64,000 bases of DNA from Fimbriimonadales bacterium (GTDB taxonomy: Bacteria; Armatimonadota; Fimbriimonadia; Fimbriimonadales; GBS-DC): the NCBI GenBank assembly GCA_025998675.1, contig AP024673.1:323520-387519 (forward strand), written 5' to 3'. Position numbers and translations under genes: made by a program. The notes below the pieces were generated by a model, which saw only the letters and a list, made by a program, of their open reading frames with translations, was not told the origin of the DNA and did not search any database. Position 1 is the first letter of the stretch. Every line of letters begins with the position of its first letter. Positions 19 through 60,541 of this stretch are shown in pieces.

Positions 19-423
19 GTGCTGAACCTGCTGGACACCGACGAGGAAGCCGCGCGCGCCCTGCGGCTGGAACACATCACCGAGCAGCCTTTCTCGCCAA
101 TTTCGGACGAAGCCTTCCACCGCGCGCTTTCGTTGTTGCAAACGGCGGACGCCGTAATCCTCGCGGAGACGCCCTTCGGGCGGGGCAACCTGCGCAATCT
201 GGAGCTGGCGCGCGCGGCGCAGGCACAGGGCAAGCCCGTCGTTGCGCTCGCCAGCCGTCCAATCGAGTCGCGCGACTTCACCGACGGCGCGGCGACCGCT
301 CTCTGGCACACTTTGCTTCAGAACGGCATGACCCCAGCGCCCGACCTGCCGACGCTCCTCGCACGGCTCGCGACGCTCACTCCAGATGGGGCTGCGGCTT
401 CGTCCACAACCGCAACATCGTGA
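19..423 (+). CDS. Uncertain ORF, possibly the C-terminal part of a nucleoside 2-deoxyribosyltransferase-like protein. The frame is open back to window position 1.
   Basis: No stop between nt 1 and 19 in this frame, and the first codon is GTG. The block 'ADAVILAETPFGRGNLRNLELARAAQAQGKPVVAL' resembles the ...E.G.A.A.GKPV... core of deoxyribosyltransferase-like proteins (weak match). The 3' end overlaps the convergent nhaA by 47 nt. Confidence 0.35.
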   Translation: MLNLLDTDEEAARALRLEHITEQPFSPISDEAFHRALSLLQTADAVILAETPFGRGNLRNLELARAAQAQGKPVVALASRPIESRDFTDGAATALWHTLLQNGMTPAPDLPTLLARLATLTPDGAAASSTTATS

Positions 424-3459: not shown

Positions 3460-4339
3460 ACGAAACCCCATTCTCTGCGAAGGTGTACAGATTGGGTTCT
3501 GCGCGTTCGCGGGCAATCCGCTCTTCTGCAAGGCGGACATACTCTTCCATGAGTTCAATCCCGATATAGCGGCGGTCATGGCGGATGCAGGCGACCGCCG
3601 TCGTGCCCGAACCCATGAACGGATCCAGCACAATATCGCCCGGCTCTGTGAACAGCTTGATGAACCACGCAGGTAACTCCACAGGGAAGGTCGCCGCGTG
3701 ATAGCGATTGTAGCACTCGGTCGCCATGTGCAGCACATTCGTCGGGTAGGCGTGCTCGCGTCCGATCCAGTTCGCCACACGCTTGCCAAAGCCGCTACCC
3801 GCGCGCGAGTTGAACCTGTGTAAATCGTTCGCCCCCAGCTTTTTCAGCCGTTCGTGTCGCCACTCGCCCATGGGAACCATCACCGCTTCCTGAAACATTT
3901 TGAACTGTTTTTGCTTTGTGAAGTGAAGCAATCGTTCCCAGGCATCGCGGAAGCGGTTCGGCCATTTGCCCGGATAGCAGTTCTTTTTGTGCCAGATATA
4001 CTCTTCCGTCCACAGCCACCCCTGCTGACGCATCGCAAGGATAAGTTCCAGCACATAGGTATGCCGCTCGCCGTTGACCACGCGCTCTTTGATGTTCAGC
4101 ACGAATGAACCCGTCGGCTTGAGGACGCGCTGGAGCTCGGCGGCAATCGGCAGAAACCACGCCACATACTCGTCGGGATGGACGCCGCCGTAGACATTTT
4201 TGCGCTGGTCGGCGTATGGGGGCGAGGTGATGATGAGGTCCACGCACGCATCGGGCAACTGCGCCAGCACGGTGCGGCAGTCGCCGTGCAGGATACGGTT
4301 CACAAACGGCTTCACTAGCGTCTCGTGTGCGTCGGGCAT
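3449..4339 (-). CDS. Beta-class N4-cytosine/N6-adenine DNA methyltransferase
   Basis: Motif IV 'LIITSPPYADQ' lies N-terminal to motif I 'VLDPFMGSGTTAVAC', which is the beta-class order. SPPY favours m4C. ATG at 4337-4339 was preferred over the track's TTG at 4369. Confidence 0.85.
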   Translation of the reverse strand: MPDAHETLVKPFVNRILHGDCRTVLAQLPDACVDLIITSPPYADQRKNVYGGVHPDEYVAWFLPIAAELQRVLKPTGSFVLNIKERVVNGERHTYVLELILAMRQQGWLWTEEYIWHKKNCYPGKWPNRFRDAWERLLHFTKQKQFKMFQEAVMVPMGEWRHERLKKLGANDLHRFNSRAGSGFGKRVANWIGREHAYPTNVLHMATECYNRYHAATFPVELPAWFIKLFTEPGDIVLDPFMGSGTTAVACIRHDRRYIGIELMEEYVRLAEERIARERAEPNLYTFAENGVSYES

Positions 4340-9015: not shown

Positions 9016-9810
9016 ATGAACCTGCATGAGACGCTTCGGGATGCATTTACAGTGAAATACATCATGACGCCGCGCCAGCATCTGGAAGTGGGGTCTGTCA
9101 AGCCCGTGCTGCGCGGCGAACCCTGCTATGATGTTATTCCAAGAACCGAGGACGATTGCTTCGTGGGTCTCTGGGTGCTTCGCGAGGGTGAGTATCTGCC
9201 TGAACCCATCACCGAAGAGTGGATTGTTGCACACTCCACCCCCATCCCCGAAATCATCCGCATTTTCAGCGGACCACACGCCAAGCCAGCCTATCTTGTG
9301 GTCAACGGCGCGCGCGTGGACGGGATTGTCTCACCCGCCGACCTGAACAAGGTCGCCTGCCGTACCTACCTCTTTACACTGGTGGGTGAACTGGAGTATT
9401 GTCTCGCTCAACTATTACGAGAATACTTCCAGTCTTCTGAGGAGAGGATGCTGGAATTTCTTTCCCCAGACAGGCAGACGGAAGTCCGAAAGTTGCGTAT
9501 GGAGCGGCAGGCTAACGACATGGATACGGGGTACATCGAGGTTTTATCGCTGAGCGATATTGTGAATATCATCTGCAAAAATGAAGACTTACGCTTTCAG
9601 CTAGGGTTTAGCTCTCGCAAGCAGTCGGAAAATTGCTTGAATGGGCTTGTTCATTTCAGGAATGTTATAGCGCACCCAGTACGGGAAATGAGTTCTGCAT
9701 ACAAGGTACGGGACATCCTTGAGAAAGTGGAGCTAATTGAGCGTGTTCTGGAGCAATTAGCGCGTACCCCTGCGGCTGGTCAGGAGGAGAGCGTGCAGAT
9801 GGCAAGTTAG
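9016..9810 (+). CDS. CBS-pair + HEPN (R-x4-H) domain protein, a putative ligand-gated RNase
   Basis: 264 aa with a GGAGGG RBS. Two CBS-like motifs ('VKYIMTPRQHLEV...', '...ARVDGIVSPADLNK') are followed by an alpha-helical C-terminal domain ending in 'LNGLVHFRNVIAHPV' (R-N-V-I-A-H, i.e. Rx4H). The 3' half is markedly AT-richer than the surrounding DNA. Confidence 0.6.
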   Translation: MNLHETLRDAFTVKYIMTPRQHLEVGSVKPVLRGEPCYDVIPRTEDDCFVGLWVLREGEYLPEPITEEWIVAHSTPIPEIIRIFSGPHAKPAYLVVNGARVDGIVSPADLNKVACRTYLFTLVGELEYCLAQLLREYFQSSEERMLEFLSPDRQTEVRKLRMERQANDMDTGYIEVLSLSDIVNIICKNEDLRFQLGFSSRKQSENCLNGLVHFRNVIAHPVREMSSAYKVRDILEKVELIERVLEQLARTPAAGQEESVQMAS

Positions 9811-10450: not shown

Positions 10451-12286
10451 ATGCAAACGCGCAAGGGGATGCGGTGGACATTGAGCGCGCTTATCACGCT
10501 CCTGACGCACACTGCGGCGGCGCAGTGCGAGATACAGCACTTCGAAGGCTACTCGAACGGTCTTAACGGCGTGGTGATGTTCCGCCAGCCGAGCTTTTCG
10601 GGCACGACCAGCGGCTTTCTGGCGTACACAGGGACGTGCAGCAGCGGTCCCAACTGCGCTCAGATTAGTCTGGAGCGCAACCGCACGCCGTCGGGCAGCC
10701 GCGCGCTGAAGGTCGTCTGGCAGTTCAACGGCAACCCCCGCGCGTGGCTGCGCCTGACAACCTTCAACACGCTCTATTACGCGAACCCGACGATTAGCTT
10801 CCAGCGTCGGCTGAGCCTGTGGCTGTATGTGCCCAGCAGCACGCCCGACTTTTACCTGACGCTGGGCGTGCGCGAGACGCAGCCCAGAGCCGCCTGCGGC
10901 GCGAACGGCGGCGCAACGGGCGGCATCGAGTGGGTGGGCGCGACGCAGGGCGACGCCAGCAACCCGCCCATCGGCAAGCGCATCCGCCAGAAAGACCGCT
11001 GGGTGCAGGTGGTGTTCGACCTGCCCAGTGAGCCTGTGCTGCCGTTTGCAGGGGGCGCGAACGGCGTACTGGACGGGCGCGCGGGCGTGCTGGAGCATCT
11101 CGCCTTCACACCCGTAGACCCCAGCGACGCGCGCCCCTACACGGTCTACATCGACGACATCCGCGTGCTGCCCAACGAGAACGACCCGGTAGATCCCCCA
11201 TGGATTTTCGGGCTGCACGAGCCGGGCGGCGAGTTTGCCGCCGTCGCGGAGGGCAAGCGCATCTGGATCCTGTTCACGGAAGAGCTGGGCGCAGACCCCA
11301 ACAACCAGACCGGGCGCGACTATCGCCCCTATGTGAACGCGGGGCACGGGGTGATTGTGCGCCTGAACTACGGCTATCATCCCAACGGCACGCTGCCGCC
11401 GTCGTCGCAGTATGCGAACTTTGCCCAGCGCGTGGCGAACTTCGTGCGCAACTCGCATGGCGCGCATATCTGGATTATCGGCAACGAGACGAACCTGCCC
11501 GCGGAATGGCCCGGCGGCGAGAACGGGGAATCCATCACCGTCGCCCGCTATGTGCAGGCGTTTCGCATGTGCCGCGACGCGATTCGGTCGATTCCCGGAC
11601 ACGAGGACGACTGGGTCTGCGCCGCGCCTGTGGGAACCTACGCGCCGCCCTTCCCGCAGTACGGCATTCCGGGCTTTCTGGATTACTGGCAGCAGATGCT
11701 GGACGCCATCGGCGCGGAGCAGGACGGGATTATTCTGCACGCCTACACGCACGGCAGCGACCCGAACAACATCTTCAGCGAAACGCGCATGCAGCCGCCC
11801 TACGATCAGGTGTACCTGCACTTCCGCGTCTATCGCAACCTGCTGAGCCGCGTGCCGCCGTCGCTGCGCCATCTGCCCGCCTTCATCACCGAGACCAATC
11901 AGGGCGAGCCATGGACGAACACCAACAACGGCTGGATTAAAAACGCCTATCAGGAGATACACACCTGGAACCAGAACCCCGCGAATCAAGCTATCTGGGG
12001 CGTGTGCCTGTATCGCTGGCCGCAGATTGACCCCTACTACATCGAGGGCAAGTGGAACACCATTCAGGACTGGCGCGAGGCGATGCGCAACGACTATCGC
12101 TGGCGGCGCGATGCGGTGGGCGATGTGGACGGCGACGGCTGTGTGGACGACGCCGACATGCTGGGGGTGCTGTTTCGTTTTGGGCAGGGCGGCTACAACC
12201 GCTACGACCTGAACTGGGACGGCGCGATTGACGATGCGGATTTGCTGCATGTGCTGTTCGCCTTCGGGCAGGGGTGCGACGGTTAG
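10451..12286 (+). CDS. Secreted clan GH-A-like glycoside hydrolase with an N-terminal beta-sandwich domain and a C-terminal dockerin-like module
   Basis: Signal peptide 'MRWTLSALITLLTHTAAAQ'. Candidate acid/base 'IWIIGNETNL' and nucleophile 'LPAFITETNQ'. C-terminus 'GDVDGDGCVDDADMLGVLFRFGQGGYNRYDLNWDGAIDDADLLHVLFAFGQGCDG'. The track start 10418 is GTG; ATG 10451 is preferred. Confidence 0.6.
   Translation: MQTRKGMRWTLSALITLLTHTAAAQCEIQHFEGYSNGLNGVVMFRQPSFSGTTSGFLAYTGTCSSGPNCAQISLERNRTPSGSRALKVVWQFNGNPRAWLRLTTFNTLYYANPTISFQRRLSLWLYVPSSTPDFYLTLGVRETQPRAACGANGGATGGIEWVGATQGDASNPPIGKRIRQKDRWVQVVFDLPSEPVLPFAGGANGVLDGRAGVLEHLAFTPVDPSDARPYTVYIDDIRVLPNENDPVDPPWIFGLHEPGGEFAAVAEGKRIWILFTEELGADPNNQTGRDYRPYVNAGHGVIVRLNYGYHPNGTLPPSSQYANFAQRVANFVRNSHGAHIWIIGNETNLPAEWPGGENGESITVARYVQAFRMCRDAIRSIPGHEDDWVCAAPVGTYAPPFPQYGIPGFLDYWQQMLDAIGAEQDGIILHAYTHGSDPNNIFSETRMQPPYDQVYLHFRVYRNLLSRVPPSLRHLPAFITETNQGEPWTNTNNGWIKNAYQEIHTWNQNPANQAIWGVCLYRWPQIDPYYIEGKWNTIQDWREAMRNDYRWRRDAVGDVDGDGCVDDADMLGVLFRFGQGGYNRYDLNWDGAIDDADLLHVLFAFGQGCDG
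12119..12283 (+). other. Dockerin-like double EF-hand C-terminal module (divergent copy)
   Basis: Two D-x-D/N-x-D-G-x-(V/I)-D-D-A-D-(L/M)-L-x-V-L-F-x-F-G repeats, with the terminal motif G-Q-G-C-D-G. Confidence 0.6.
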
Positions 12287-49504: not shown

Positions 49505-49541
49505 GTATAGCGTGCAGAAGCGCCGCTTCCGCACGCTATAC
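49505..49541. repeat. Variant of the family-1 short palindrome
   Basis: GTATAGCGTGCaGAAGC-gcc-GCTTCcGCACGCTATAC. Same CGGAAGC-type hairpin core but with a different outer stem and one mismatch. Confidence 0.6.
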
Positions 49542-49576: not shown

Positions 49577-51250
49577 TTAACACCCTTCTCCGAACGCGAA
49601 CAGCGCCATCAGCAGGTCGGCGTCGTCCACGATGCCGTCCCTGTTCGCGTCGGCGTCGGGGTCGTCACTGCCGAAGGCGAACAACACCGTTAGCAGATCC
49701 GCGTCATCCACGCAGCCGTCGCCGTTCATATCGCCGGGCACAATCCGAACCACAAGCGAAGGTCCATCCGCTTGCCCGTCGAAGGGCGTGATTTCGCACT
49801 CCAGCAGGTCGCCGGGCTGATAGATGCCCCAGGGAATCGCGTCCGAATGAGCCGCGATGGTTTCCTGGCGAACCGTGTTGCCGTTCACGCGCCATGTATA
49901 CCGGTAGCGAACCAGATCGTAATCGGGGTCATCGACGAGAACCGAGGTATTCAGGCGGCAGAAGATTGCGTCGCCGGCGCCCGGTCGAGGCGGATCAAAA
50001 GCCGCCGCTTCGATGGCAAAGGGCGGGCGGTTGACGATTTCTGGCTGCGTGGCGACCACCTTGAAGGGCGCGTCCATCATCAACTGATTGTTGATAAACA
50101 ACTGAACGCGCCATGTGCCGACAATATTCGGGTTGAGATTGTATCTCCACCACCACCACGCCGTGGAGTACGGGACATTGTTGCCAAAGTTGCGGTTGCC
50201 ACTGTTGAATGCTAAGGTTCCATCTGGATACAGAAAGCGCACGCGCCAGGTGCTGTTAGCCGGCAGGTTGACAAGCACGATCCACCAGCTGACAAAGGGC
50301 GCGCTGCTCAGGAAAGTGCCCGTGCGGGGCATGTCGTAGGGCAAGCCCGGATAGTTTGCAATCAGCACATCCGTCATGTTGAAATCCCATAAGGACATAT
50401 CACGACGGATGGGAACCTGATTGACCCAGTAACTCTGCCCCGGTCGGCAAGTTCCTGCGTGCGGCTCATAAGGAGTCAGCGGATCGCCGTACGCCGACTC
50501 AAAGTACAGACGGGGAAGGCGGCTGCATCCGCTGCTGCCGGTGAGACCCAGTTGCTGACCGGCGCGCACCGTCTGGTTGACGGCAACCGCCACACTGCCA
50601 TTCCGCAGATGGGCATAGATGCTGTAATGGGCGCCGCCATGCCAGAGGACAACGCTGTTACCGAGGGGGTCCTCCTGACAAGAGGCGTTGTAATCAGCGT
50701 ACCCATCCATAGTGAAAACTACCACTCCATCCAGCGCGGCATACACCGGCACGCCAATATCCTGTTCACCGTAGTTGAAGGTTCGAAGGAACGAGGTTTG
50801 CCCGGTACTCCCATCGATAGCGTAATCGGTGCAGTCCCAATCCAGAACGCTGCCGGAGACAGGGTCGAGATCAACATAAAGGGTGGCGAGATCACGCCAG
50901 AGATTTCCCGCCTGCGGGTAGAAGGGATAGGGTGCAGGTCCGCCGGCAGGATGAAAGGAATAGCCGTACCGGGCGTGATAGTCGGCGATCCCCTGCATGA
51001 TGCGCGCCCACTGTTCCGGCGAGATGCCTTCTTGTAAAGCGGGATCGTAGGCGAACAGGGAGCCGCCTCCAAATTCGTAGGTCGGAGGTCTGGAGAGTTC
51101 TCTTAGCGCACCCAGCCAGCTGAGGCTCTGGGCATTCAACAGGGTCGGTGTGCCAAGCATCCCGCTCAGCACCAGCACAAACAGCCATCCTCGCGCCGGC
51201 AGTCTCTGCGGCGCCGATCTTCTCGAACTGCATCTTGTGTGTTTCATCAT
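49577..51250 (-). CDS. Secreted degenerate LytM/M23-domain protein with Ig-like domains and a C-terminal dockerin-like module
   Basis: AGGAG RBS before the MM at 51245-51250, with a signal peptide. M23-like 'GNSVVLWHGGAHYSIYAHLRNGSVAVAVNQTVRAGQQLGLTGSSGCSRLPRLYFE', but HxxxD is replaced by 'DYAID' and HxH by 'RLY'. Confidence 0.6.
   Translation of the reverse strand: MMKHTRCSSRRSAPQRLPARGWLFVLVLSGMLGTPTLLNAQSLSWLGALRELSRPPTYEFGGGSLFAYDPALQEGISPEQWARIMQGIADYHARYGYSFHPAGGPAPYPFYPQAGNLWRDLATLYVDLDPVSGSVLDWDCTDYAIDGSTGQTSFLRTFNYGEQDIGVPVYAALDGVVVFTMDGYADYNASCQEDPLGNSVVLWHGGAHYSIYAHLRNGSVAVAVNQTVRAGQQLGLTGSSGCSRLPRLYFESAYGDPLTPYEPHAGTCRPGQSYWVNQVPIRRDMSLWDFNMTDVLIANYPGLPYDMPRTGTFLSSAPFVSWWIVLVNLPANSTWRVRFLYPDGTLAFNSGNRNFGNNVPYSTAWWWWRYNLNPNIVGTWRVQLFINNQLMMDAPFKVVATQPEIVNRPPFAIEAAAFDPPRPGAGDAIFCRLNTSVLVDDPDYDLVRYRYTWRVNGNTVRQETIAAHSDAIPWGIYQPGDLLECEITPFDGQADGPSLVVRIVPGDMNGDGCVDDADLLTVLFAFGSDDPDADANRDGIVDDADLLMALFAFGEGC
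49580..49735 (-). repeat. Dockerin-like C-terminal module, DNA-level repeat of 52771-52926
   Basis: GDMNGDGCVDDADLLTVLFAFGSDDPDADANRDGIVDDADLLMALFAFGEGC*. By-eye nucleotide identity to the giant gene's tail is roughly 80-85%. Confidence 0.8.
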
Positions 51251-51321
51251 GTGTCTCCTGCGTTGCTTCTGGTTCCTCACTGGGGCTCAAGAGATTCAGC
51301 CGATGCCCCAGTCAGGCGTAT

Positions 51322-52731
51322 TTACCGCTGGCTCGGTTTACGGGCTTCCAGCTCCGATACGCGCTGCTCCAGGGCGGCGATACGCGCCTGTTGCTGCTTG
51401 ATGACTTCGTTGAGATAGAGCACCATCTTCTCGTAGTTCACCCCATCGGGACGCCCCTGCAGGTCGTACTCTACCAGACGATGCAGCCCCAGGTCATGCA
51501 CCTCCTCCGCGAGGTAGCCGATTTCCCAGCGGTTGGGATCGCCGCCGATGCGGGTGTAGGTCTTCGGCTGCAGAGAGAGGACTCTGGCGAAATCGTCCTC
51601 CAGCGGGGTGATGTTCTCTTTATAGCGGTGGCTGGAGGTGTCCCAGCCAATCTCGCCTGTCGACTGGTTCCACTGCATGTTGCGGAAGTCTCCGATGTTG
51701 CGCAGACCTGCGGCAGCGAGCCGTCCATCATCCTGGACCGCTAACAATGTAGTGCCGTCCGCTTTTTCGACGACGAAAGCATAGGTATGCCCGGTGTTCC
51801 GAATGGTGAAGTTTGAATTGCCATAAATGAAGCGATGCCCAATCCTGCCGTCAGGTGCGATGTAGAGATCCCAGCCGCCCGGCGGGTTGTTGTCGCCTGC
51901 AAGTCGTAGGTCATTAAAGCCCACAAGGCGGTCCAGTCCGAAGATGCTGGCATCATCAGCAACCCGAATGTTGCCGTTCACATGGAGCCTCTCGGTTGGA
52001 CTGCTTGTGCCGATGCCCACATTCCCCCCAGCAGCAAGAAACAGGCGCGCATCCGCCACCCCAGTCTCGGCGAAGTTAAGCCCATTCCCCAGATTGTTGA
52101 GATGCCATTTGTCCGCACCGGCGACGGTGTCCCTGAACTGGATCCATTCCGAATGAGTGCCGTGACCTCTAATGGTCAACGGGCGATTAAGATTGTCCGT
52201 GCGGATGCCGAAAAAACCCCAGTTGGTATTGACATTACCGTCGTCTAACCCGATTCGCAGCTTCGATACACCCGCTCTCACAAAATGGAAACTATCGTCC
52301 GAGTCACGGTATTGTAAGCCCCAGTTCGTAGAAGTGGGCGAATGGGCAATCACCATGCGGTCGGGATTGCCACCGCCGCTTTCGAACAGGCGCAGCGCGC
52401 TGGCATACGGCGTCGGGGTGATTTTCACACGGGGTGAAAGGGTCGTGGAACCCACCTGAATCTCCAGATAGCGGGTTCCCCCATCCCAGACCGAAGCGGG
52501 GAAGTTCAGCTCCACACTGAACAAGCCGTTGCTCACCGCAACATTCAGCGGTCCCACCGTGCCCAGCGGCGTCCCGCCAGTTGCCGCGTTATAGAGCCGA
52601 AAGGTCATCGAGAAGGCGCCGTTCGCAGGGCTGCCGCTGTCTTTCAGCATCCCCTGATAGGTGAACGGCTGGGCGCACGCGAGCGCCACGAGCATTATAA
52701 ATCCCAGACTGCAGAGCGTTATGCGTTTCAT
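51322..52731 (-). CDS. Tail-fibre-like secreted protein with a C-terminal intramolecular chaperone (peptidase S74-type) domain
   Basis: AGGAGG RBS and a signal peptide. N-terminus 'FTYQGMLKDSGSPANGAFSMTFRLYNAATGGTPLG...NGLFSVELNF...GTRYLEIQV'. C-terminus 'DTSSHRYKENITPLEDDFARVLSLQPKTYTR...IGYLAEEVHDLGL...VNYEKMVLYLNEVIKQQQARIAALEQRVSELE'. Confidence 0.75.
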   Translation of the reverse strand: MKRITLCSLGFIMLVALACAQPFTYQGMLKDSGSPANGAFSMTFRLYNAATGGTPLGTVGPLNVAVSNGLFSVELNFPASVWDGGTRYLEIQVGSTTLSPRVKITPTPYASALRLFESGGGNPDRMVIAHSPTSTNWGLQYRDSDDSFHFVRAGVSKLRIGLDDGNVNTNWGFFGIRTDNLNRPLTIRGHGTHSEWIQFRDTVAGADKWHLNNLGNGLNFAETGVADARLFLAAGGNVGIGTSSPTERLHVNGNIRVADDASIFGLDRLVGFNDLRLAGDNNPPGGWDLYIAPDGRIGHRFIYGNSNFTIRNTGHTYAFVVEKADGTTLLAVQDDGRLAAAGLRNIGDFRNMQWNQSTGEIGWDTSSHRYKENITPLEDDFARVLSLQPKTYTRIGGDPNRWEIGYLAEEVHDLGLHRLVEYDLQGRPDGVNYEKMVLYLNEVIKQQQARIAALEQRVSELEARKPSQR

Positions 52732-52767
52732 TGTCAGACCTCCTTCTGTCCTGTGAGAAGGCGGGCG

Positions 52768-55700
52768 CTAACACCCGCTGCCGAAGTTGAACAGTACTAC
52801 CAGCAGGTCGGCGTCGTCCACGACGCCGTCGCCGTTCGCATCGGCGTCGGGGTTGTCGCTGCCGAAGGCGAACAGCACCGTTAGCAGGTCGGCGTCATCC
52901 ACGCAGCCGCTGCCGTCCACATCGCCTGCGCGCGGCGCCACCAGCCACACACGCGCGGTGTTCAGAGCCGCTGCCGAATGGCTGACGGTGTATCGCATGG
53001 TGTAGGCGCCCGGTTGATCGGGCGTGTAGGTCGCCTCATTGCCCGACAGGTTCAGGCTGCCGGACGCCGGGTTCTCCACGATCTGGTAGGTCAACTGGTT
53101 CGGCTGGGTGAGATACTCGGCGAAGGCGCCCAGCGTGAAGGCGCGCCCGCCCGCGGGCACATGCACCGTGTGAAGGGGCGCGGTGGAGCCGAGCCAGCGC
53201 GCGTTGCTGAAGGTTCCGTTCGCTCTGCTGGGCGACGAGTCGAGGGCGGTGGCGGCGCCGTTGCCCCATTCATCGAGGCGCCAGTAGCCGATGAGTCCGC
53301 GCTCGTTGCCTCGCAGCACCGCGTGCATATCGCGCTGGATTTCACGCTGGGTGCGTGCGCGGTTCCAGATGCGCACCTCGTCGATGAACCCTTGGAAGCC
53401 CTCAGGGCCACTGCCGCTGCCAATCCCCAGCGTGTAGTTGCCAGGGGTGAAGGGAGTCATGCCAGTCTTCTGGGCTTCCAGAACGCCGTTGCGGTAGATG
53501 CGCATGTAGTTCCCGCTGCGGCTCGCCACAAAGGCGAAATGCTGCCATGTGCCGATGATTGGCTGGGGAGGCGTGTAGGAAACTCGTCCCTGCGTGGTGA
53601 GGTTGCCGAAGTCGAAGTAGACCCTGCCATCGATCCAGGGGCTATGCACCACGATGCGATTGGTGCTGGCGCCGCCGTTGATGTCGATAGTGGCGCTGCT
53701 GCGCGTGGCGCCCGCCAGTTGCCAGAACTCGATGGTGAGTTCATCGGCGGAGACGCGATTGCCGAAGCCCGGCACGCTCATCAGGGAGTTGGTGTTGCCG
53801 TTGAAGTAGCGCATCGAGCCGCCCAGGCTGGCGTGCGGTGCATTCGTGCGCTGAATGGCTCCCGATGCGGTGTTGCTGTTGACAAGCCCATCGCTGACGC
53901 GGTAGCTGAACGCGCCTGAAATACCCCCGATGGGGGGCAGGAAGGTCGCGTTCGGGAACACGCCGCCCACCCACTGCCCGCCGCTGGGCGCAGTGAGCAG
54001 GTTATAGTTCAGCGCGTCCTCGTTGGCGTCGTAGGCGTTCAGGCGCGATGTACGCGGCACGCCTTCCACGACATACAGGAACTCGACGGGCGCGCTGGAG
54101 GTCTGCCACAGGGGCGCGTTGAGGAGCGTCGCCGCCTCGCCTGATACAGCCTCTATGGTTTGGTTCCCCGATCGCTCATCGAATCGGAAATAGGCAAGCA
54201 GCCCAGTCTCGTCGCCGACGAGGCTCGCCTTACGGTTCACCTCATCAGTTCCGACAACGGCGCTGTTCCAGAGTTTCACCTCGTCGATCTCGCCGTCGAA
54301 GTGCCCGTTCAGTGGCGTGCCCGTATAGCGCCCAATCATCAGCGGCGTGGTGGTCGCGCATGCGCCCGGCGAACCCGTCCATGGGCGGCTGGCGCGCAGC
54401 GCGCCGTCCACATAGAGCCGCCCGCCACTGGCGTCCACCGTGAACTGGATATGATGCCACGCGCCGTCAGCAATCGCCCCTCCGTCCAGCCCCAAGCCGC
54501 CGTCCCAGATGTAGTTGTTCAGGTCGCGGAAGTACCATGCATACACTCGCCCGTTGCGCTGGTATATCTGGTAGCCGTTGCCTGAGCCACTCACATACTT
54601 GTTGACGATGCCGCGTTCGAGGTTCGCTGTATCCAGCGTGCGTACCCAGCAGGAGACTGTGAGCGGATAGGCGTTCAGTTCGGGGCGGTGGTCAAACTGC
54701 ACAGCGGTATTCGAGCCGTTGAACAGCAGGCTCGCTCCAGCAAGGGACGCTTCAGGCGCGCTGTTGACCACAGACACGGTATTGGCGGCTACATTTGCAA
54801 GGAACAGGGAATCGCCCAGGAATTCCACACGCACGGTGTGGTTGCCGCGCGCAGTGCCCCGCGGGATGGTGTACGCGGTGCGGAAGACGCCGCTGGAATC
54901 GGTGTTGCCGCTGGCAATCGGCGCGCCGTCCCAGAGGATATTCAGCGTGCGGTTCGCAATCGGCGCGCCGGTGGCGTCCGAGAGCCTGCCGCCCAGCGTC
55001 ATCTGCTGCGAGACCGAGACCTGCGATGGCTCAGTGATGGACGTCAGGATTGTTGCGCCGCGATTCACCGTGAGCGTGGTTGTCTGAGATGCAGGCAGGT
55101 AGGCGGCGTTGCCCGCGTACTCCACCCGCAGCGATTTCGCGCCTGTGCCCAGCGATTCGGGCGGGAGATAGCTCAGCGTCGCCGTGCCGTTGCTCTGGGT
55201 GTCAGCAAACCCGATGAAGGCGTTCTGCACGAAGAATTCCAGCCGCTGACCCGCAATCGGCAGGTTGTTGTCGGGTCGTCGCAGGGACGCCGTGAGGTTC
55301 ACAGGCGTGCGAATCGCGCCCGTGGCAGGCGGCGCGGTCAGCGCGACCGCGACCGCGTACACCTCATCCGCGCCTATGTCGATGGTAACGCCGTTCACCC
55401 GCGCCTGCCCGTCGTAATCGACCAGAATGCCAGCCGCGTCGGGCAGGCTGCCCCGATCGATGCAGGGCGAGTCGCCCAGATGGAAGTTGTTGTTGCTTGC
55501 GTCCACAAAGCGTGGGTCGAGATTGATGTCGCTCGCATACGCGCTGGCGGCGATGTTGCGATAGTTGGCGCTGGACGGGTTGTACACGCAGTTGTTGCGC
55601 AGGGTCACTGTCGCGGTGGACACATTCTTGCGATCAATTCCGGGACCGTTCCCCTGAAACGCCACGATGTTGTTGGCAAGCAGCGTGTTGGTGCTATCGG

Positions 55701-58700
55701 AGCAGTAGACGCCGCCTCCGAGAGAGGCGCTGACACTGGTGTTGTAGGCGATGGTGTTGTTGATGAGTTGCGCGCTTGCGTAGCGCAGATAGACGGCGGC
55801 GCTGTTGTAGGCGGCATTGCGCGCGATGAGATTGTTGAGAATCTGCACATTCGCGCCGAACGGATTTGCCCCCTGTACCAGGATGCCCGCGCCGCTCCCG
55901 GAGACATCCAGCGAGCGGTTGTTGATAATCAGGTTGTTGGAAATCACGACGACGCTACAGTCGCCACTGATCAGCACGCCCGCGCCGCCTGCAGGGCGGT
56001 TGCCCCTATGGAGGGTGAAGCCATCGAGGGTGGCGTTGACTGTGCCCGCGTTCACCGTCGCCACCGTGCCGCCCCACTGCCCGTCGAGGCTGCTCTCGTT
56101 GGCGAACAGGTTGCGCTGGCTGCGGCTGGTCTCGTTGCCCGCAAAGCCGCCGTACACATGCACATTGCTTCGCAGGGTGATACGCTCGTTATAGGCGCTC
56201 GCCTTGACCCACACCTGCGCGCCGCCCGCAGAGGAGGGCGCGGCGGCGTTGATGCCCGCCTGCACCGTGCGCTTCGCCGTCGCCCAGCTCAAGCCGTTGT
56301 TCGCATCGTTGCCCTCAGGACTGACATAGATGATGCGCGCGTCGCTGACCGTGAAGGTGAGCGCGTTGGAGTCGATGCTTGGCTCGTTGCGCACGGTGAT
56401 GGGAAAATCGCCCGCGTTGCGCAGCAGGTGGGCAGGAATAACGGCGCGCACAAGCGTTGGACTCACAAAGGTGGTGTTAACGGGCGTCCCTCCAAAGTAG
56501 GCGCGCGCCGTGCTTTCGAAGCCACTGCCCCAGATGTCCACCTGCGTTGCAGGCGCGAAGGTCGTGACGCTGCTGGGGTTGAGCCCGGTCAGCGTGGGCG
56601 CAGGGTTGCGCACGGTGAACCATTCCTCGTTGGAATCGATGCCGTCCGTTTGCGGGTTGCGCACCTTCACGATATTCACGCGCCCCGTGTTCATCGTGCC
56701 CGCGGGCAGTGTGAAGCGCAGGCGGGTGTCCGAGAGGCGTGTGGTCGCCAGCGGTGTGCCGTTGAACACGACTTGACAGCCGGGACGGAAGCTCACGCCG
56801 CGCACCTCCACAAAGCTGGGCGGCGCGTCGCCCCGATTGACCACATTCGGCTCGCACCGCTCCACGACAGGGATCGGGTTCAGCACATCAAACCCTTCGC
56901 CGCTGTCCGAAGTGATGTAGCCGCCTCGCCCATCGGGATGGCGGATTCCAATCAACACACGGCGAGGCGTCTGCATCAGGTCGCCCGGAATCTGCCCCAT
57001 CAGCTCCGCCGTGCTGACATACTGGGTGGGCAAGGGGATTGCGTTATTGGGGTTCCAAGTGTCGCCCTCAACCAGGATCAGCTCGGTGACGCCTTTGATG
57101 AACCAGGTGCCGCGCACCCGAATAGGGATGCCCTGCGCCCCGATGGAGCGCCCGCGCCGTGGGTTCAGCCGACGATCGTAGTCTTCATCCCACTGAAGCG
57201 ACGGGTGGGAGGCGTAGATATTGTAAGTGGATTCGCCGCCGCCTGGACCCCTGTTCACCACCTTCAGCGCCATCGTGCCCGGCTGCCACAGGTACCGATT
57301 GGGAACTCGAATCCGCATGTAGTTGGAGGGGTTCTCGCTCCCGCTCCCAATCTGTTCGATGGCGACTGCCTGATCGTTCCAGTAGACCTCCGTCACGCCG
57401 TTCCGATAGTAGGAGCTGTCTGAGCCTGCGGTGGTCAGTTCCAGCTCCAGGTCGGTACTCGGAAAATCGACGCCAATCGTGTAGCCTCTGTAGTCTTCTC
57501 CGGGCAGGCAGTCGCAGCGTACATCCCGTATCACGGGCTGCCTGTAGCCGACGGCGAATGCGAGGGCGTTCGTGTCGGGCTTGCCCGGCGTGCGCACAAA
57601 CAGCGTGTAGTTGCCGATTGTGGTGAGCAGGCTGGCAGGGATGACTGCTCTTACCACATTGGACTGAATCAGCGTCGTGCTGATCTCTGTGCCTCGAAAC
57701 ACCACCCGCGACTGGCTGGTGAAGTAGCTGGCGGGACGGCACTCCAGATAGAGGGTGGCGCTGGAGTCGTACACCCGCGCGAAGGTGGGGCTGTTGTAGT
57801 TCACACTGTAAAAAATGCCAGGGGTGGCGTCGGTGTTGGCACGCACCGTCAGCGCGCCCGCCGCCTGATCCGAAAATCCGCTCAGCGTGAAGGTGCGATT
57901 GAAGATGCGAATGGGCAGGGTGCTGCCGATGCCCATCTCGTCCACAGGCTTGAACTCAAAACTGCCCAGTGAGATGTCGCCGAGGTTGCCGCTGGCGTAC
58001 ACATAGAGCGGCAGGAAGTAGATGCCTCCAGAAAGAGTCAGATAGGTGATATTGGTGAACTGGTTGTCCATGACCACCGAGGCGTTCACGCCCAGCGCGC
58101 CCGACATGGGGAGCTGGATGGCGACGCTCTCGCCTGCATAGAACTCGACAGGCGCGCGCCCATCCGTGAAGGTCAATCGGATTTTGGGGCGCGGCGCGAA
58201 CTCAAAGTCCTGACGGAACCCAAGTCCCGCTCGTACCTCCGTTTGCAACAGCGAGTAGCCCGCCTCCAGTCCGGGATACGAGATGCTCTGGCGCAGGTAG
58301 TTGTTCGGCGGCTGTCCCAGCAGCGTTTGAATCAGATAGATGGTCGCGGCGGTCAGATCGCCCGTCAGCGTGACAAATCGGTCGCTGCCTGTGGCGGTCA
58401 GGCGCGTCTCTACAGGCGAGATTGGGTTGCCCCCTTCCGTGATAATCAACGGGCGATGCACATTCAGAGTCAGCAGCCCCGGAAAGCTCGGAATGAGATC
58501 GAAGTCCCGATCCCAGATGTTCAGGTTGTCCGTGTTGACCAGCTCCTGCACATAGTTCACGCGCGGGATGTTCACCGAATTATTGATTATATCTCTACTG
58601 AACGCGCGTGCACGGACGCTGAATGAGCCGGCAAAATCCAGCACGCTCGACATCACGAAGCGGGCGGTGGGCGAAGTGGTGCTGAGACGCGCGCCCTGCT

Positions 58701-59163
58701 GGAGCCTGTAGCTGGACTGGATAACGGCAATCCCGCCGGGTACCAGATACTCGCGGGTGGGGAAGGAAAGGGTCAGCTGCATCGGGTAAATGACCGACAC
58801 ATCGCCTCCCGTCGTGTAGGCATCGAACTGGAGTCCGAGCCGACCGCTCGCGGACGCGCTGCCCGATGCGCCAAACTCGCCCAGAAAGGGGATAGAGAAA
58901 TAGCCGCCGCCCGAACGCGAGCCGTTGAAGTTGCCCCCCAGAAAGTAGGAGTAGCCGATATTGCAGGCGCCTGGCTGCCACATGCACTGGTTGGCAGTGG
59001 TAAAGGTCAGGTTATAGGTATAGACCTCGCGGTTTTGCTGCGCGAACCCGGCAACGAAGGCGCATCCCAGAACCAGCGCCAGAACGAGAGCAAGCCAACA
59101 GAAGCGAGTTTGCTTCCCTGCCTCTGCACGGAGACCTAGTGAACGCCCAGAATAGAATCGCAT
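52768..59163 (-). CDS. Giant (2131 aa) secreted surface protein: N-terminal beta-rich region, IPT/TIG repeats, right-handed beta-helix, 2 Ig-like domains, 2 LamG domains, dockerin-like tail
   Basis: ATG 59163 with a GGGAGGA RBS (the track start 59190 is TTG), plus a signal peptide. IPT-like 'PVVERCEPNVVNRGDAPPSFVEVRGVSFRPGCQVVFNG'. Beta-helix 'VVISNNLIINNRS...ILNNLIARNAA...LINNTIAYNTS...LLANNIVAF'. LamG 'FDGEIDEVKLWNSAV' and 'FQGFIDEVRIWNRAR'. Confidence 0.75.
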   Translation of the reverse strand: MRFYSGRSLGLRAEAGKQTRFCWLALVLALVLGCAFVAGFAQQNREVYTYNLTFTTANQCMWQPGACNIGYSYFLGGNFNGSRSGGGYFSIPFLGEFGASGSASASGRLGLQFDAYTTGGDVSVIYPMQLTLSFPTREYLVPGGIAVIQSSYRLQQGARLSTTSPTARFVMSSVLDFAGSFSVRARAFSRDIINNSVNIPRVNYVQELVNTDNLNIWDRDFDLIPSFPGLLTLNVHRPLIITEGGNPISPVETRLTATGSDRFVTLTGDLTAATIYLIQTLLGQPPNNYLRQSISYPGLEAGYSLLQTEVRAGLGFRQDFEFAPRPKIRLTFTDGRAPVEFYAGESVAIQLPMSGALGVNASVVMDNQFTNITYLTLSGGIYFLPLYVYASGNLGDISLGSFEFKPVDEMGIGSTLPIRIFNRTFTLSGFSDQAAGALTVRANTDATPGIFYSVNYNSPTFARVYDSSATLYLECRPASYFTSQSRVVFRGTEISTTLIQSNVVRAVIPASLLTTIGNYTLFVRTPGKPDTNALAFAVGYRQPVIRDVRCDCLPGEDYRGYTIGVDFPSTDLELELTTAGSDSSYYRNGVTEVYWNDQAVAIEQIGSGSENPSNYMRIRVPNRYLWQPGTMALKVVNRGPGGGESTYNIYASHPSLQWDEDYDRRLNPRRGRSIGAQGIPIRVRGTWFIKGVTELILVEGDTWNPNNAIPLPTQYVSTAELMGQIPGDLMQTPRRVLIGIRHPDGRGGYITSDSGEGFDVLNPIPVVERCEPNVVNRGDAPPSFVEVRGVSFRPGCQVVFNGTPLATTRLSDTRLRFTLPAGTMNTGRVNIVKVRNPQTDGIDSNEEWFTVRNPAPTLTGLNPSSVTTFAPATQVDIWGSGFESTARAYFGGTPVNTTFVSPTLVRAVIPAHLLRNAGDFPITVRNEPSIDSNALTFTVSDARIIYVSPEGNDANNGLSWATAKRTVQAGINAAAPSSAGGAQVWVKASAYNERITLRSNVHVYGGFAGNETSRSQRNLFANESSLDGQWGGTVATVNAGTVNATLDGFTLHRGNRPAGGAGVLISGDCSVVVISNNLIINNRSLDVSGSGAGILVQGANPFGANVQILNNLIARNAAYNSAAVYLRYASAQLINNTIAYNTSVSASLGGGVYCSDSTNTLLANNIVAFQGNGPGIDRKNVSTATVTLRNNCVYNPSSANYRNIAASAYASDINLDPRFVDASNNNFHLGDSPCIDRGSLPDAAGILVDYDGQARVNGVTIDIGADEVYAVAVALTAPPATGAIRTPVNLTASLRRPDNNLPIAGQRLEFFVQNAFIGFADTQSNGTATLSYLPPESLGTGAKSLRVEYAGNAAYLPASQTTTLTVNRGATILTSITEPSQVSVSQQMTLGGRLSDATGAPIANRTLNILWDGAPIASGNTDSSGVFRTAYTIPRGTARGNHTVRVEFLGDSLFLANVAANTVSVVNSAPEASLAGASLLFNGSNTAVQFDHRPELNAYPLTVSCWVRTLDTANLERGIVNKYVSGSGNGYQIYQRNGRVYAWYFRDLNNYIWDGGLGLDGGAIADGAWHHIQFTVDASGGRLYVDGALRASRPWTGSPGACATTTPLMIGRYTGTPLNGHFDGEIDEVKLWNSAVVGTDEVNRKASLVGDETGLLAYFRFDERSGNQTIEAVSGEAATLLNAPLWQTSSAPVEFLYVVEGVPRTSRLNAYDANEDALNYNLLTAPSGGQWVGGVFPNATFLPPIGGISGAFSYRVSDGLVNSNTASGAIQRTNAPHASLGGSMRYFNGNTNSLMSVPGFGNRVSADELTIEFWQLAGATRSSATIDINGGASTNRIVVHSPWIDGRVYFDFGNLTTQGRVSYTPPQPIIGTWQHFAFVASRSGNYMRIYRNGVLEAQKTGMTPFTPGNYTLGIGSGSGPEGFQGFIDEVRIWNRARTQREIQRDMHAVLRGNERGLIGYWRLDEWGNGAATALDSSPSRANGTFSNARWLGSTAPLHTVHVPAGGRAFTLGAFAEYLTQPNQLTYQIVENPASGSLNLSGNEATYTPDQPGAYTMRYTVSHSAAALNTARVWLVAPRAGDVDGSGCVDDADLLTVLFAFGSDNPDADANGDGVVDDADLLVVLFNFGSGC
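52771..52926 (-). repeat. Dockerin-like C-terminal module, DNA-level repeat of 49580-49735
   Basis: GDVDGSGCVDDADLLTVLFAFGSDNPDADANGDGVVDDADLLVVLFNFGSGC*. Confidence 0.8.
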
Positions 59164-59212
59164 GGTGTCCTCCCGTGATAGCCAACCCAATCATAGCACG
59201 GGAGGGTCTCCG

Positions 59213-59238
59213 TTGCGTAATTTTTCGGAAAATTGCAA
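59213..59238. promoter_or_regulatory. AT-rich imperfect inverted repeat (operator candidate) between the regulator and the giant gene
   Basis: TTGCgtAATTTTtcgGAAAATTGCAA in the 91-nt spacer. A TATGAT -10-like hexamer lies on the minus strand about 27 nt before the ATG at 59163. Confidence 0.35.
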
Positions 59239-59254
59239 CACCCTATCACGTTGC

Positions 59255-60541
59255 CTACTTGATTTGCGCGGTGATTGCCTCTACCCGGTTCCGCACCTGC
59301 CAGAGGTTGTTCGCCTGCACCAGCTGTTGTGCGCGTTCCACCCACAGGAGCGCTTCCTGATGTTTGCCAACGCCGTGAAGCGCGCGGGCGTAGATTCCCG
59401 CCTCGTGCAGTTGCTGCATCAGCACCGAATCTTCCTCCCAGCCGAGCGCCAGGTGCCTCTCGAGCACCTCCAGCGCCTGGTGCGGGCGCTGGAGATTGAG
59501 CAGCACCTCAGCGTGCGAGAGCCATACATTTCTATCATCGCCCAATCCCAGTCCTTTGCTGACGGCGTGCGCGCTGGTGCTCACGGCGGCGCGCGTCGCG
59601 TGCGTCAGGCTCATGTATTCCGCAATATCGCGCAGGAACCACGCCTCATACTTGATCGCGGTGGCGGCGGCGACAGGGAGCCAGTCCTGCAAGATGCGGA
59701 TGCCTGCGGTGGGATACGGCTGGGCGCGCTTCTCGGCGGCGTCTTTCGCGGTGGCATGCACCACCCACAACCAGTGTGGGCGTGGGTTCTCCCAGCGACC
59801 AATCAGGTGCATCGCACGCGCGGCTGGGGTCTGCGCGTCGATCAGGCGGGCGTCCTGGAGTAGATGGCGACAGTGGCACACATAGGCGTCGATGAGCAAA
59901 AGTCGCCCCACCTCGCTTTGTTGACTCACGCCCCAGAGGTGTCGCTCCAGAGAGAGAAAGTATAAATCGGCAAGCGCTCTATCGAGAGCAATCTCCGCGT
60001 TGACAATCTGGTGCAATAGATGGTCCAAGTCCTCCAGCTGTGATGAGAACGCCTGCGCTTCGGCGTGGAAATGCAGGCGCCCAGCGGAGAGAGCCGCCTG
60101 TTCTGGAGCGTGCGCATGCAGCAGGGCACAGAGTCTGTGCAGCTGCTCGTCCGAGGGCCACGCCTCCGAGTGTTCCCAGCGGTGGAGGGTTGTGGCGCTG
60201 ATGTGCATCTGCTTCGCGGTCTGCTCCAGAGTCCAGCCCCTGCGCTGTCGCATTGCACGCAGCAGGTCGCCGGGAATGGGGATGTGCGGTTTCACCTGTG
60301 AGCCGGGCGGATTGGGTTGCGTCGTGTGTAGCCGGGACAGTGCGCGCGGCGCGTCAATCAGCTCCAGGGCGCGACGCCGCTCAGCGTCGCTGGCGCCCAG
60401 CGCACGCATCAGCGCATCAAGCTCGTAGAGCGAGGGGCGCACAGCACCCGATTCCCAGCGGCTCACAGTGGAGGGGTGAATCCCCGCTTTCTGGGCGAGT
60501 CGTCGGATGGAGAGTCCACGCACGCGCCGGAGATGCGCCAA
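59255..60541 (-). CDS. Dual-HTH (XRE family) transcriptional regulator with a C-terminal TPR-like helical-repeat domain
   Basis: HTH1 'LSIRRLAQKAGIHPSTVSRWESGAVRPSLYELDALMRALG'. HTH2 'WTLEQTAKQMHISATTLHRWEHSEAWPSDEQLHRLCALL'. About 280 aa of helical repeats follow. TTG start. Confidence 0.7.
   Translation of the reverse strand: MAHLRRVRGLSIRRLAQKAGIHPSTVSRWESGAVRPSLYELDALMRALGASDAERRRALELIDAPRALSRLHTTQPNPPGSQVKPHIPIPGDLLRAMRQRRGWTLEQTAKQMHISATTLHRWEHSEAWPSDEQLHRLCALLHAHAPEQAALSAGRLHFHAEAQAFSSQLEDLDHLLHQIVNAEIALDRALADLYFLSLERHLWGVSQQSEVGRLLLIDAYVCHCRHLLQDARLIDAQTPAARAMHLIGRWENPRPHWLWVVHATAKDAAEKRAQPYPTAGIRILQDWLPVAAATAIKYEAWFLRDIAEYMSLTHATRAAVSTSAHAVSKGLGLGDDRNVWLSHAEVLLNLQRPHQALEVLERHLALGWEEDSVLMQQLHEAGIYARALHGVGKHQEALLWVERAQQLVQANNLWQVRNRVEAITAQIK

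Follow-up and report, generated by a model that had tools for sequence, protein, structure and literature searches.

Within a 64,000-nucleotide window of contig AP024673.1 from a Fimbriimonadales bacterium (Armatimonadota), four open reading frames (ORFs) lie in the same orientation on the minus strand between positions 49577 and 60541. In order of transcription they encode an XRE-family regulator, a giant exported protein, a secreted fibre resembling the mosaic adhesive trimer (MAT) fibres of Bdellovibrio bacteriovorus, and a degenerate M23/LytM protein (Table 1). An earlier note on this DNA had described the four as an undescribed, phage-derived and domesticated surface apparatus, held together by a shared dockerin-like tag. 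Our ORF, Pfam and NCBIfam results agreed with that note on the number, position and orientation of the genes and on the TIG, beta-helix, Ig-like and two LamG domains of the giant protein. The comparison with related loci led us to a different division of the cluster, into a conserved core of regulator, giant protein and fibre, of which the M23 protein is not a constant member.

A conserved core of three genes

The regulator, giant and fibre genes stay together in related loci from 92% down to 39% protein identity, despite inversion of the regulator and changed flanks, and an orthologue or paralogue of the regulator adjoins the giant gene in each. Locus L037 is colinear with the window in the order greA-XRE-giant-fibre-M23 (XRE 93%, giant 92%, N-terminal part of the fibre 75% identical). 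L068, on a 301-kb contig, keeps the trio in different flanks (XRE 80%, giant 91%, fibre 74%), and L010 (XRE 82%, giant 88%) stops inside the giant gene. Further away, L003 has the giant (68%) and fibre (54%) genes with a 34% identical XRE gene on the other strand, and L042, L044 and L045 have a divergently oriented XRE gene (50%), a giant gene alignable over its full length (39%) and the fibre (60%). The M23 gene follows the fibre in the window and L037 only; it is absent from the complete locus L068, where the fibre gene is followed by a DUF1501 gene on the other strand, and most other related contigs stop no more than a few hundred bases from the fibre gene. The expected co-occurrence of four genes was thereby found across divergent genomes for three of them and failed for the fourth. 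The ratio of nonsynonymous to synonymous substitution (dN/dS) was 0.18 for the giant gene and 0.26 for the regulator gene, the latter against L037.

Table 1. Features of the cluster and of one unlinked gene with the same tag (window coordinates; aa, amino acids; nt, nucleotides)
Feature	Position	Strand	Basis or remark
XRE-family regulator, 428 aa	59255..60541	-	HTH aa 2-57 and aa 91-145; ~280-aa helical C-terminal domain
Conserved cis motif GTTGCAATTTTCCG(AAAAA)	59226..59239	-	upstream of giant gene; candidate operator/activator site
Hairpin CCTCCCGTG...CACGGGAGG (candidate fold)	59169..59205	-	3' arm is the giant Shine-Dalgarno sequence (GGGAGG, 59174-59169)
Giant exported protein, 2131 aa	52768..59163	-	Pfam and NCBIfam matches, motif coordinates
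Giant: signal peptide, then N-terminal region without domain assignment	aa 42-539, nt 57547-59040	-	
Giant: TIG/CoaZ repeats	56338-57546	-	
Giant: right-handed beta-helix	55354-56340	-	Disaggr_assoc type
Giant: Big_3_5 Ig-like domains	between beta-helix and LamG 1	-	
Giant: LamG 1	54256-54729	-	Laminin_G_3
Giant: LamG 2	53350-53814	-	Laminin_G_3; followed by Big_9
Giant: dockerin-like end	52771-52926	-	
Secreted MAT-like fibre, 469 aa	51322..52731	-	
Fibre: signal peptide	aa 1-20		cleavage between ACA and QPFTYQG, SPase-I type
Fibre: beta-sandwich N-domain	aa 21-~110, nt 52402-52671	-	conserved
Fibre: shaft capping-loop motif GNVGIGTSSPTERLHV	aa 236-251, nt 51979-52026	-	
Fibre: S74 intramolecular chaperone	51325-51636	-	from S366; dyad S366/K371
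Exchangeable tip cassette (distal shaft, S74 chaperone, short 3' flank)	51276..51971	-	blastn against L037
Degenerate M23/LytM protein, 557 aa	49577..51250	-	
M23: signal peptide, then LytM domain	about 50462-50815	-	S148, T152, R247, Y249 for H, D, H, H
M23: two FN3/Ig-like domains	aa ~285-505		
M23: dockerin-like end	49580-49735	-	
Strong hairpin	49506..49540	-	just 3' of M23 stop, before pepP; probable 3' end of transcription unit
Exported protein, 611 aa, same tag type (12119-12286)	10451..12286	+	motif scan, ORF listing; unlinked to cluster

The regulator had been read as a dual-HTH XRE protein with a TPR-like sensor domain. The HTH part of that reading stands, with HTH_31 (1e-26) and HTH_3 (1.5e-22) each matching two stretches; the TPR signal is weak, TPR_14 scoring 21.3, below its cutoff of 23.5. 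As in RNPP-type regulators (PlcR/NprR; also WhiJ-like HTH_31 proteins), an N-terminal XRE HTH region is joined to a helical C-terminal domain and the gene adjoins genes of exported proteins. The window regulator differs from these in its two tandem HTH domains, its sub-threshold TPR signal and its phylum. It had no significant match in the Protein Data Bank (PDB) to any solved RNPP protein, and no signalling-peptide gene was identified, none having been searched for.

Upstream of the giant gene, the motif GTTGCAATTTTCCG(A/C)AAAA lies ~33-38 nt ahead of a -10-like TGCTATGAT (59198-59190). Across the ~680 kb of fetched DNA, it precedes the giant gene, with at most one mismatch, in the window, L010, L037, L042, L044 and L045; the only other strict matches, in L035 and L036, are not linked to a giant gene, and L068 becomes the seventh giant locus with the motif at up to two mismatches. 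The intergenic region between XRE and giant genes is 94% identical across three genomes whose proteins there are 82-92% identical, and it is better conserved than coding DNA. The dual-HTH regulator probably acts on this conserved site, TTGCAATTTTCCGAAAA, ahead of the giant gene. A hairpin that would sequester the giant Shine-Dalgarno sequence was also considered. The -10-like element overlaps the 3' end of its 5' arm and extends into the loop; the stems are invariant among three genomes, the loop varies (in L010), and compensatory changes were not seen. Its stability was no better than that of shuffled sequences (z -0.72), and we keep it as a candidate fold only.

The best giant start is ATG 59163, with the Shine-Dalgarno sequence GGGAGG; the best starts of the fibre (ATG 52731) and M23 (ATG 51250) genes have Shine-Dalgarno sequences as well. 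The deposited calls for the giant (2071 aa) and M23 (533 aa) proteins remove the signal peptides. By inspection, all three secreted proteins have Sec-type N-termini, as had been noted. The giant and fibre genes are separated by 36 nt, the fibre and M23 genes by a weak hairpin. The much stronger hairpin beyond the M23 gene has a 17-bp stem (-38.8 kcal/mol, z -5.0, 0 of 200 shuffles folding as well) and lies inside a stretch conserved with L037. It has no U-tract and is a putative terminator, probably marking the 3' end of the transcription unit.

Upstream of the cluster are polA and greA, and downstream pepP and cutA, then LemA/TPM, mutY and argH, with housekeeping genes within 1-2 kb on both sides. 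No capsid, terminase, portal, tail tube or sheath, baseplate or integrase gene was found in the flanking ~10 kb on each side, and the trio loci L068, L042 and L046 likewise had no phage structural genes nearby; the cluster is not a prophage, in keeping with what the earlier note had seen inside the window. The lower GC content reported for two of the genes is real but modest (fibre 0.583, M23 0.592, window mean 0.637). Contig JBBFKP010000011.1 (115 kb) of the metagenome-assembled genome (MAG) GCA_037481915.1 carries the fibre gene; relatives of the fibre protein come nearly all from Fimbriimonadales/Armatimonadota MAGs, many of hot-spring origin, and near-identical DNA is present in metagenomes of hot spring, sediment and microbial mat.

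A MAT-like fibre with an exchangeable tip

The signal sequence of the fibre, MKRITLCSLGFIMLVALACA, runs directly into QPFTYQG. The same motif occurs in 104 of the top 120 homologues, and in most of the 120 an AxA-type site precedes it (by inspection), and the commonest preceding tetrapeptides all end in Q-P, Q-A, Q-S or Q-T. A lipoprotein anchor, suggested by 'LVALAC' in the signal peptide, was ruled out, as the Cys is not conserved and the homologues have AxA sites followed by Q.

The following N-domain, modelled as beta-rich with pLDDT 83-93, had been taken for the N-terminal repeat of a phage tail fibre. It turned out to be a single beta-sandwich domain with no match in 50,697 phage genomes, the tblastn matches of the fibre beginning at residue 93 or later and the PHROG matches at residue 160 or later. 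Used alone as a query, it matched 31,588 cluster representatives at E <= 1e-3 (6,830 at E <= 1e-10), almost always starting ~20-45 residues from the N-terminus and nearly always straight after a signal peptide. No Pfam or NCBIfam model matches it, which leaves a large annotation gap of ~31,600 cluster representatives, and Foldseek returned no strong PDB homologue. The fetched matches span several phyla and include a hypothetical protein of a Phycisphaerales MAG; one Patescibacteria ORF joins this N-domain to a shaft like that of Bd2133. A cohesin identity for the domain was rejected for now, the top 50 Foldseek matches being only weak Ig-like ones with no cohesins among them. At L069 (1-4197 and 10001-11614), part of a 1.4-Mb contig whose neighbouring genes are Planctomycetota-like (ECF sigma factor, Pkinase-WD40), this N-domain recurs on an S74 fibre, with a large TIG protein encoded ~6 kb away; the N-terminus of that TIG protein is weakly like the domain-less N-terminal region of the giant protein (25% over 286 aa).

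Beyond the N-domain, the fibre resembles both bacterial and phage fibres. A phmmer search against the PDB gave, through the shaft, Bd2133 (8OND, 2.9e-5), Bd2439 (8OL4, 4.7e-3) and, weakly, Bd1334 (8OML) and Bd3182 (8OJN). In Foldseek 8OND came first (probability 1.0), followed by the chaperone-bearing L-shaped fibre of phage T5 (pb1, 4UW8), 8ONC and 8ONF. With a 68-aa fragment of Bd2133 as the query, the genome scan matched only other phyla and the protein search returned nothing. Among predicted viral structures (BFVD) the best matches were phage IMC-domain fibres, down to 1e-14, and phage fibres are 25-32% identical to the window fibre over residues ~93-465. The S74 chaperone reported by the earlier note was recovered with Pfam Peptidase_S74 (PF13884, 8e-9, 36.1 bits against a cutoff of 22); its motif is S366-S-H-R-Y-K371 (SSHRYK), the family consensus being SSRRYK. 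A sequence-only PDB search with the S74 region alone gave nothing significant, and the identification rests on the Pfam and fold matches instead. Like phage S74 fibres and tailspikes (K1F endosialidase 3GW6, T5 L-shaped fibre 4UW8), the window fibre has a beta-helical shaft and an S74 domain with a Ser-Lys dyad; unlike them, it has a signal peptide, a non-phage N-domain in place of a virion-attachment domain and no phage genes nearby. Shaft and chaperone share ancestry with phage tail fibres, and the phage link is limited to these parts.

The closest solved relatives of the fibre have in fact been published, as MAT fibres of B. bacteriovorus (Caulton et al. 2024, PMC10769870; PDB 8OND, 8OL4, 8OML, 8ONC), and the term 'undescribed' does not hold for it. 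That paper gives as MAT features a signal peptide and a ~130-aa conserved beta-rich N-domain without PDB homologue, a trimeric beta-helical shaft with the capping-loop motif V-G-G/N-pi-x-x-P-x-x-x-L, an S74 (SDxxxK) or non-S74 tip and many mosaic paralogues per genome. The MAT-bearing lineages it lists are mainly predator-associated, and Armatimonadota is not among them. Those MAT features that can be read from sequence all appear in the window fibre: a Sec signal peptide leading directly into a beta-rich N-domain, the shaft motif V-G-x-G/N-x-x-x-P-x-x-x-L, an S74 chaperone predicted to be self-cleaving (or a non-S74 tip elsewhere in the family), several paralogues with mosaic tips per genome, and a chromosomal position outside prophages. 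MAT fibres are also its best PDB matches in both sequence and fold. Compared with the MATs of that source, the window fibre belongs to another phylum, is much shorter (469 aa against roughly 600-1900 aa), and has SSxxxK rather than SDxxxK as its S74 motif. Its gene shares a conserved operon with those of an XRE regulator and a giant protein bearing a dockerin tag, an arrangement of which the consulted parts of the paper make no mention. Nor did the literature yield evidence of predation in Fimbriimonadales.

Comparison with L037 revealed an exchange of the fibre tip between close relatives. Between greA and fibre residue ~253, L037 (~92% identical) runs colinear with the window, at 91.6% DNA identity down to 51972; across 51971-51276 there is no similarity, and from 51275 the alignment resumes at 93.6% through the M23 gene. 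The left breakpoint falls just past the conserved GNVGIGTSSP...LHV motif (aa 236-251). L037 and L068 both carry a non-S74 tip at the position of the window's S74 tip. The more distant orthologous loci L002, L003 and L042-45 have S74 tips, and for this reason S74 is probably the older state at this locus. Fimbriimonadales genomes hold several fibre paralogues each, with the N-domain in common and at least four tip types, namely S74, '...YADAT..IEPGD...VLVNLQ', '...NDRWVQ.YG.QTEQ...' and '...EFDWEVKAVRKEHRD...'. No dockerin was present in the paralogues examined.

At a different locus, a fibre remnant in L010 (9962-10724) matches window positions 51293-51663 with 93% DNA identity. This remnant is frameshifted and has no N-domain, and its S74 tip is 95% identical in protein to the window's. 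It is flanked by a HAF-repeat dockerin gene on one side and an XRE paralogue on the other, and may be either a relic or a store of tip cassettes.

The dockerin-like tag and the degenerate M23 protein

The giant and M23 proteins end in a tag of the form DxDGxGCVDDADLLxVLFxFG, linker, DxNxDGxVDDADLLxVLFNFGSGC-stop, that is, two tandem Ca-loop/helix repeats ending in Gly-Cys. The two ends had been called near-identical, which overstates their 81% identity in protein (42/52) and 85% in DNA. The third copy, in the unlinked plus-strand gene, is 64-65% identical to the other two. That gene had been introduced as a tagged glycosidase; the tag is there, and the rest of the protein gave no significant family match, DUF5722 remaining below threshold, which leaves the glycosidase identity unsupported. 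With the dockerins of PF00404 and NF041540 the tag has in common two tandem Ca-loop/helix segments, the C-terminal position and the terminal Gly-Cys, but the window copies fall below both curated cutoffs, with no cellulosome context and no cohesin partner identified. PF00404 is passed in some relatives only, in one of them with 24.7 against 22.9, and the cellulosomal dockerins 2Y3N and 5LXV match the tag weakly. The two conserved Cys residues, in loop 1 and at the last position, suggest a disulfide or another terminal modification. Our literature search returned nothing relevant on a 'GC-type dockerin' or on dockerins in Armatimonadetes.

The tag is widespread in these genomes. By pattern scan, the window and the fetched loci together contain 32 modules (~30 in the fetched loci), and in four metagenomes contig depth was ~210-260 on dockerin DNA against roughly 0-35 on unique parts, a roughly 10-40x excess. 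It is a many-copy 'GC-type dockerin' module, presumably a general tag for surface retention in these genomes, and since it is multi-copy its sharing is no specific evidence for a four-protein complex. The genes that carry it are not randomly placed, and they concentrate beside fibre genes. Of 25 pairs of N-domain and module (28 modules in 433 kb of fibre loci), seven had the dockerin end within 1 kb upstream of the fibre start on the same strand, and nine had it 2-4 kb downstream, again on the same strand.

Fibre paralogues with non-S74 tips have their own dockerin neighbour. Downstream of the fibre in at least eight loci lies a 'SGGGYDLSWWTIDGGG' dockerin protein, small (~130-170 aa) and secreted (L005:9998-13460, also L009, L013, L015 and L019, with gapless adjacency in L011 and L025). 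It combines a GC-dockerin end with a domain 'SGGGYDLSWWTIDGGGxxFATGG...GQPDA...GGFW', for which there is no Pfam or NCBIfam match. Between this small protein and the fibre, L005 has a secreted reprolysin-like metalloprotease (M12B, HEIGHNQGCGHD).

Independent assemblies (L002, L003, L042, L044, L045, L047 and L048) repeatedly break within ~100-800 bp of the 3' end of the fibre gene or the 5' end of the M23 gene. The dockerin repeat probably explains the assembly breaks beside these genes, and the position of the breaks fits repeated DNA more generally (dockerin modules, shared signal peptides, fibre N-domains), with strain-level variation at the fibre tip as a possible further cause. 'Deletion' joints in metagenome contigs (e.g. 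49634 to 52779) were read as mis-joins across repeated dockerin DNA and set aside.

The M23 protein (Peptidase_M23, 1.3e-14) retains its fold. An AF2 model (pLDDT 85.9, pTM 0.83) is made up of the LytM domain, a pair of FN3/Ig-like domains and a dockerin of two helices. Foldseek aligned the LytM domain with lysostaphin, DipM and EnvC, with a resemblance to Csd1/2 as well; in sequence the best PDB match was the LytM domain of DipM. Its active site is degenerate. Residues H148, D152, H214, H247 and H249 are kept in at least 90% of 44 homologues (alignments A1 and A4), and the window protein has S, T, H, R and Y there, with DGSTGQTSF for DGHxGHDxD and PRLYFES for PHLHFES. Four of the five key catalytic residues are gone and H214 (in YAHL) is kept, which corrects the statement that all catalytic His residues are replaced. 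The 92% identical orthologue in L037 shows the same five residues. The nearest other homologue, P0122 (51-54% identity, depending on the alignment), has them intact, and the loss is therefore recent; a dN/dS of 0.30 against L037 means that the protein is still under purifying constraint. Judged from its residues, the protein has lost its zinc-binding and catalytic positions and is predicted to be unable to cleave; most likely it would bind peptidoglycan-like ligands or partner another enzyme instead.

Like the dLytM proteins EnvC, NlpD and DipM, the window protein keeps a LytM fold from which metal-binding and catalytic residues have been lost. Unlike these, it has no coiled-coil, LysM or FtsEX-type context and instead carries two FN3/Ig-like domains and a dockerin; its scores against the NCBIfam equivalogs are far below the cutoffs (EnvC 28.8 against 270, NlpD 22.6 against 311, DipM 31.8 against 900). 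The core of LytM and two beta-sandwich domains is a widespread family (Planctomycetota, Verrucomicrobiota, Acidobacteriota and others), normally active, with varying C-terminal anchors and unrelated neighbours. Within the operon, the M23 gene is a lineage-specific passenger kept by selection. With its active homologues, this recently inactivated, conserved protein makes a comparison pair for the passage from peptidase to binding module. The M23 signal peptide (MMKHTRCSSRRSAPQRLPARGWLFVLVLSGMLG; window 51151-51250) hardly differs from the one found on unrelated HAF-repeat dockerin proteins (MMKQMRFSSGKSAPQRLQARGGLFVLALSGMLG; L010:13522-13620); signal peptide and tag both being shared, the two ends of these proteins look like cassettes around variable middles.

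Proposed function of the operon and competing explanations

We interpret the cluster, with a probability of roughly 0.6, as a chromosomal operon through which a hot-spring Fimbriimonadales bacterium carries out adhesion or recognition at its surface under regulatory control. The regulator would act on the TTGCAATTTTCCGAAAA site and the giant protein, ending in its calcium-type dockerin-like module with Gly-Cys, would be exported as a lectin-like surface protein. The fibre N-domain would sit near the cell and the phage-fibre-like shaft would carry the exchangeable tip outwards; the S74 chaperone would be expected to assist the folding of the trimer before releasing itself by cleavage at S366. 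The bound targets might be glycans of other cells or mat polysaccharides, and the M23 protein would add a binding or enzyme-partner role in its own lineage. The idea of a regulated surface system survives in part, in the exported proteins encoded beside a regulator; the four-part apparatus is not supported.

Several observations weigh against this interpretation. A Sec signal explains export only to the periplasm of a probable diderm, not passage across the outer membrane. The likeness to MATs, as read from sequence, concerns shaft, tip and layout and, for the N-domain, its position and beta-rich character; the S74 motif is SSxxxK instead of SDxxxK, and the fibre model is confident for the N-domain only and partly for the S74 domain. 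The tag scores 24.5 (M23) and 20.4 (giant) against the NF041540 cutoff of 29, PF00404 (Dockerin_1) has no match at E <= 0.01 for the window proteins, and no cohesin-like partner is evident in the window. As to expression, the listed RNA runs hold only a background ~8% of index words. A scan for E. coli-type sigma-70 promoters and intrinsic terminators found sites no commoner than in shuffled sequence and is therefore uninformative for this phylum.

The placement of dockerin genes raises a more specific, and doubtful, possibility, that MAT-type fibres, lacking any anchor themselves, owe their retention on the cell to neighbouring GC-dockerin-tagged proteins, or else present those proteins. The neighbours that could be involved are, equally tentatively, the giant LamG protein here and elsewhere the ~130-aa 'SGGGYDLSWWTIDGGG' dockerin protein. 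If this were true, fibre and dockerin partner together would form a modular, regulator-controlled surface display with swappable tips, and the arrangement would point to a surface partner of the MAT N-domain.

An unlikely competing explanation is that the operon makes a predatory or antagonistic contact apparatus, in which, as in Bdellovibrio, the fibres together with neighbouring peptidase-like and dockerin-tagged proteins recognise and hold other bacteria, to be attacked or fed on by this scavenger, and the tips track the range of prey or targets. The closest characterised fibre relatives are MAT fibres of a predator, MATs are listed mainly from predator-associated lineages in PMC10769870, fibre paralogues adjoin a reprolysin-like metalloprotease (L005) and here an M23 protein, and the tip has been exchanged between close relatives. 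However, the literature yielded no evidence of predatory Fimbriimonadales, the M23 protein of the window appears unable to cleave, and the N-domain family, with its 31,588 cluster representatives and with fetched matches from several phyla, is no marker of predation. LamG, TIG and beta-helix domains fit adhesion to polysaccharides or a matrix equally well.

Somewhat less probable is the explanation offered by the earlier note, that all four proteins form one domesticated phage-derived apparatus assembled by the dockerin tag on a common scaffold. The phage-like shaft and chaperone of the fibre speak for it, as do the occurrence of M23 domains in phage tape-measure proteins and lysins, the tag on two of the three secreted proteins, the four-gene order kept in L037 and the more than expected flanking of fibre genes by dockerin genes. 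Against it, the fibre itself has no dockerin and its N-domain has no phage match, the tag exists in tens of copies, the complete related locus L068 has no M23 gene, and the M23 homologues are a broad bacterial family in unrelated contexts, catalytically dead in this member. The modules of the giant protein are typical of bacterial surfaces. Nothing points to a domesticated module of several phage genes; the N-domain is not phage-like, and the giant and M23 proteins are ordinary bacterial ones.

It is less probable again that the genes are coincidental neighbours, independent exported-protein genes in a genome rich in them. These genomes do contain multiple copies of fibre, dockerin and XRE paralogues, many of the related contigs are short, ending right after the fibre gene, and M23 membership is inconsistent, but the trio persists from 92% to 39% identity, survives regulator inversion and relocation to other flanks and keeps the same upstream motif, and only 36 nt with no detectable terminator separate the giant and fibre genes. 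Finally, that the cluster is the edge or remnant of a prophage, tailocin or contractile injection system is highly improbable, since its tail-fibre-like gene, repressor-like XRE HTH domains and slightly lower GC in two genes are set against housekeeping genes within 1-2 kb on both sides, the absence of capsid, terminase, tail-tube, baseplate and integrase genes from the flanking ~10 kb on each side, Sec signal peptides that misfit the assembly of a particle in the cytoplasm, and the recurrence of the trio in other chromosomal contexts, again without phage genes.

Read as an adhesion operon, the cluster is made of kinds of parts that are already known: a MAT-like fibre, an S74 chaperone, a dLytM-type pseudo-peptidase, a dockerin-like tag and an XRE regulator. 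What appears to be new is the phylum, the conserved grouping of regulator, giant and fibre genes in an operon with a cis motif, the exchange of the tip between closely related genomes and the tendency of dockerin genes to flank fibre genes. MAT fibres were described only in 2024, as prey-recognition gear of Bdellovibrio. At the present locus a MAT-like fibre occurs in a different phylum, and its operon, which is conserved, also encodes a regulator and a giant lectin-like protein and has the shared motif; the locus offers concrete candidates for fibre partners and regulation and a natural example of tip exchange outside phages.

Two other patches of the window stand out by low GC. In one (2734-4247, GC 0.54), a gene for a type II restriction endonuclease of the EcoO109I type (Pfam 3.4e-58) has as its neighbour a 150-aa ORF whose third-position GC is very low (0.37); this patch is probably a horizontally acquired restriction-modification islet. 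The second (9016-9810, GC 0.536) holds a 264-aa plus-strand ORF that no Pfam model matches, and the third dockerin-tagged gene lies just downstream of it.

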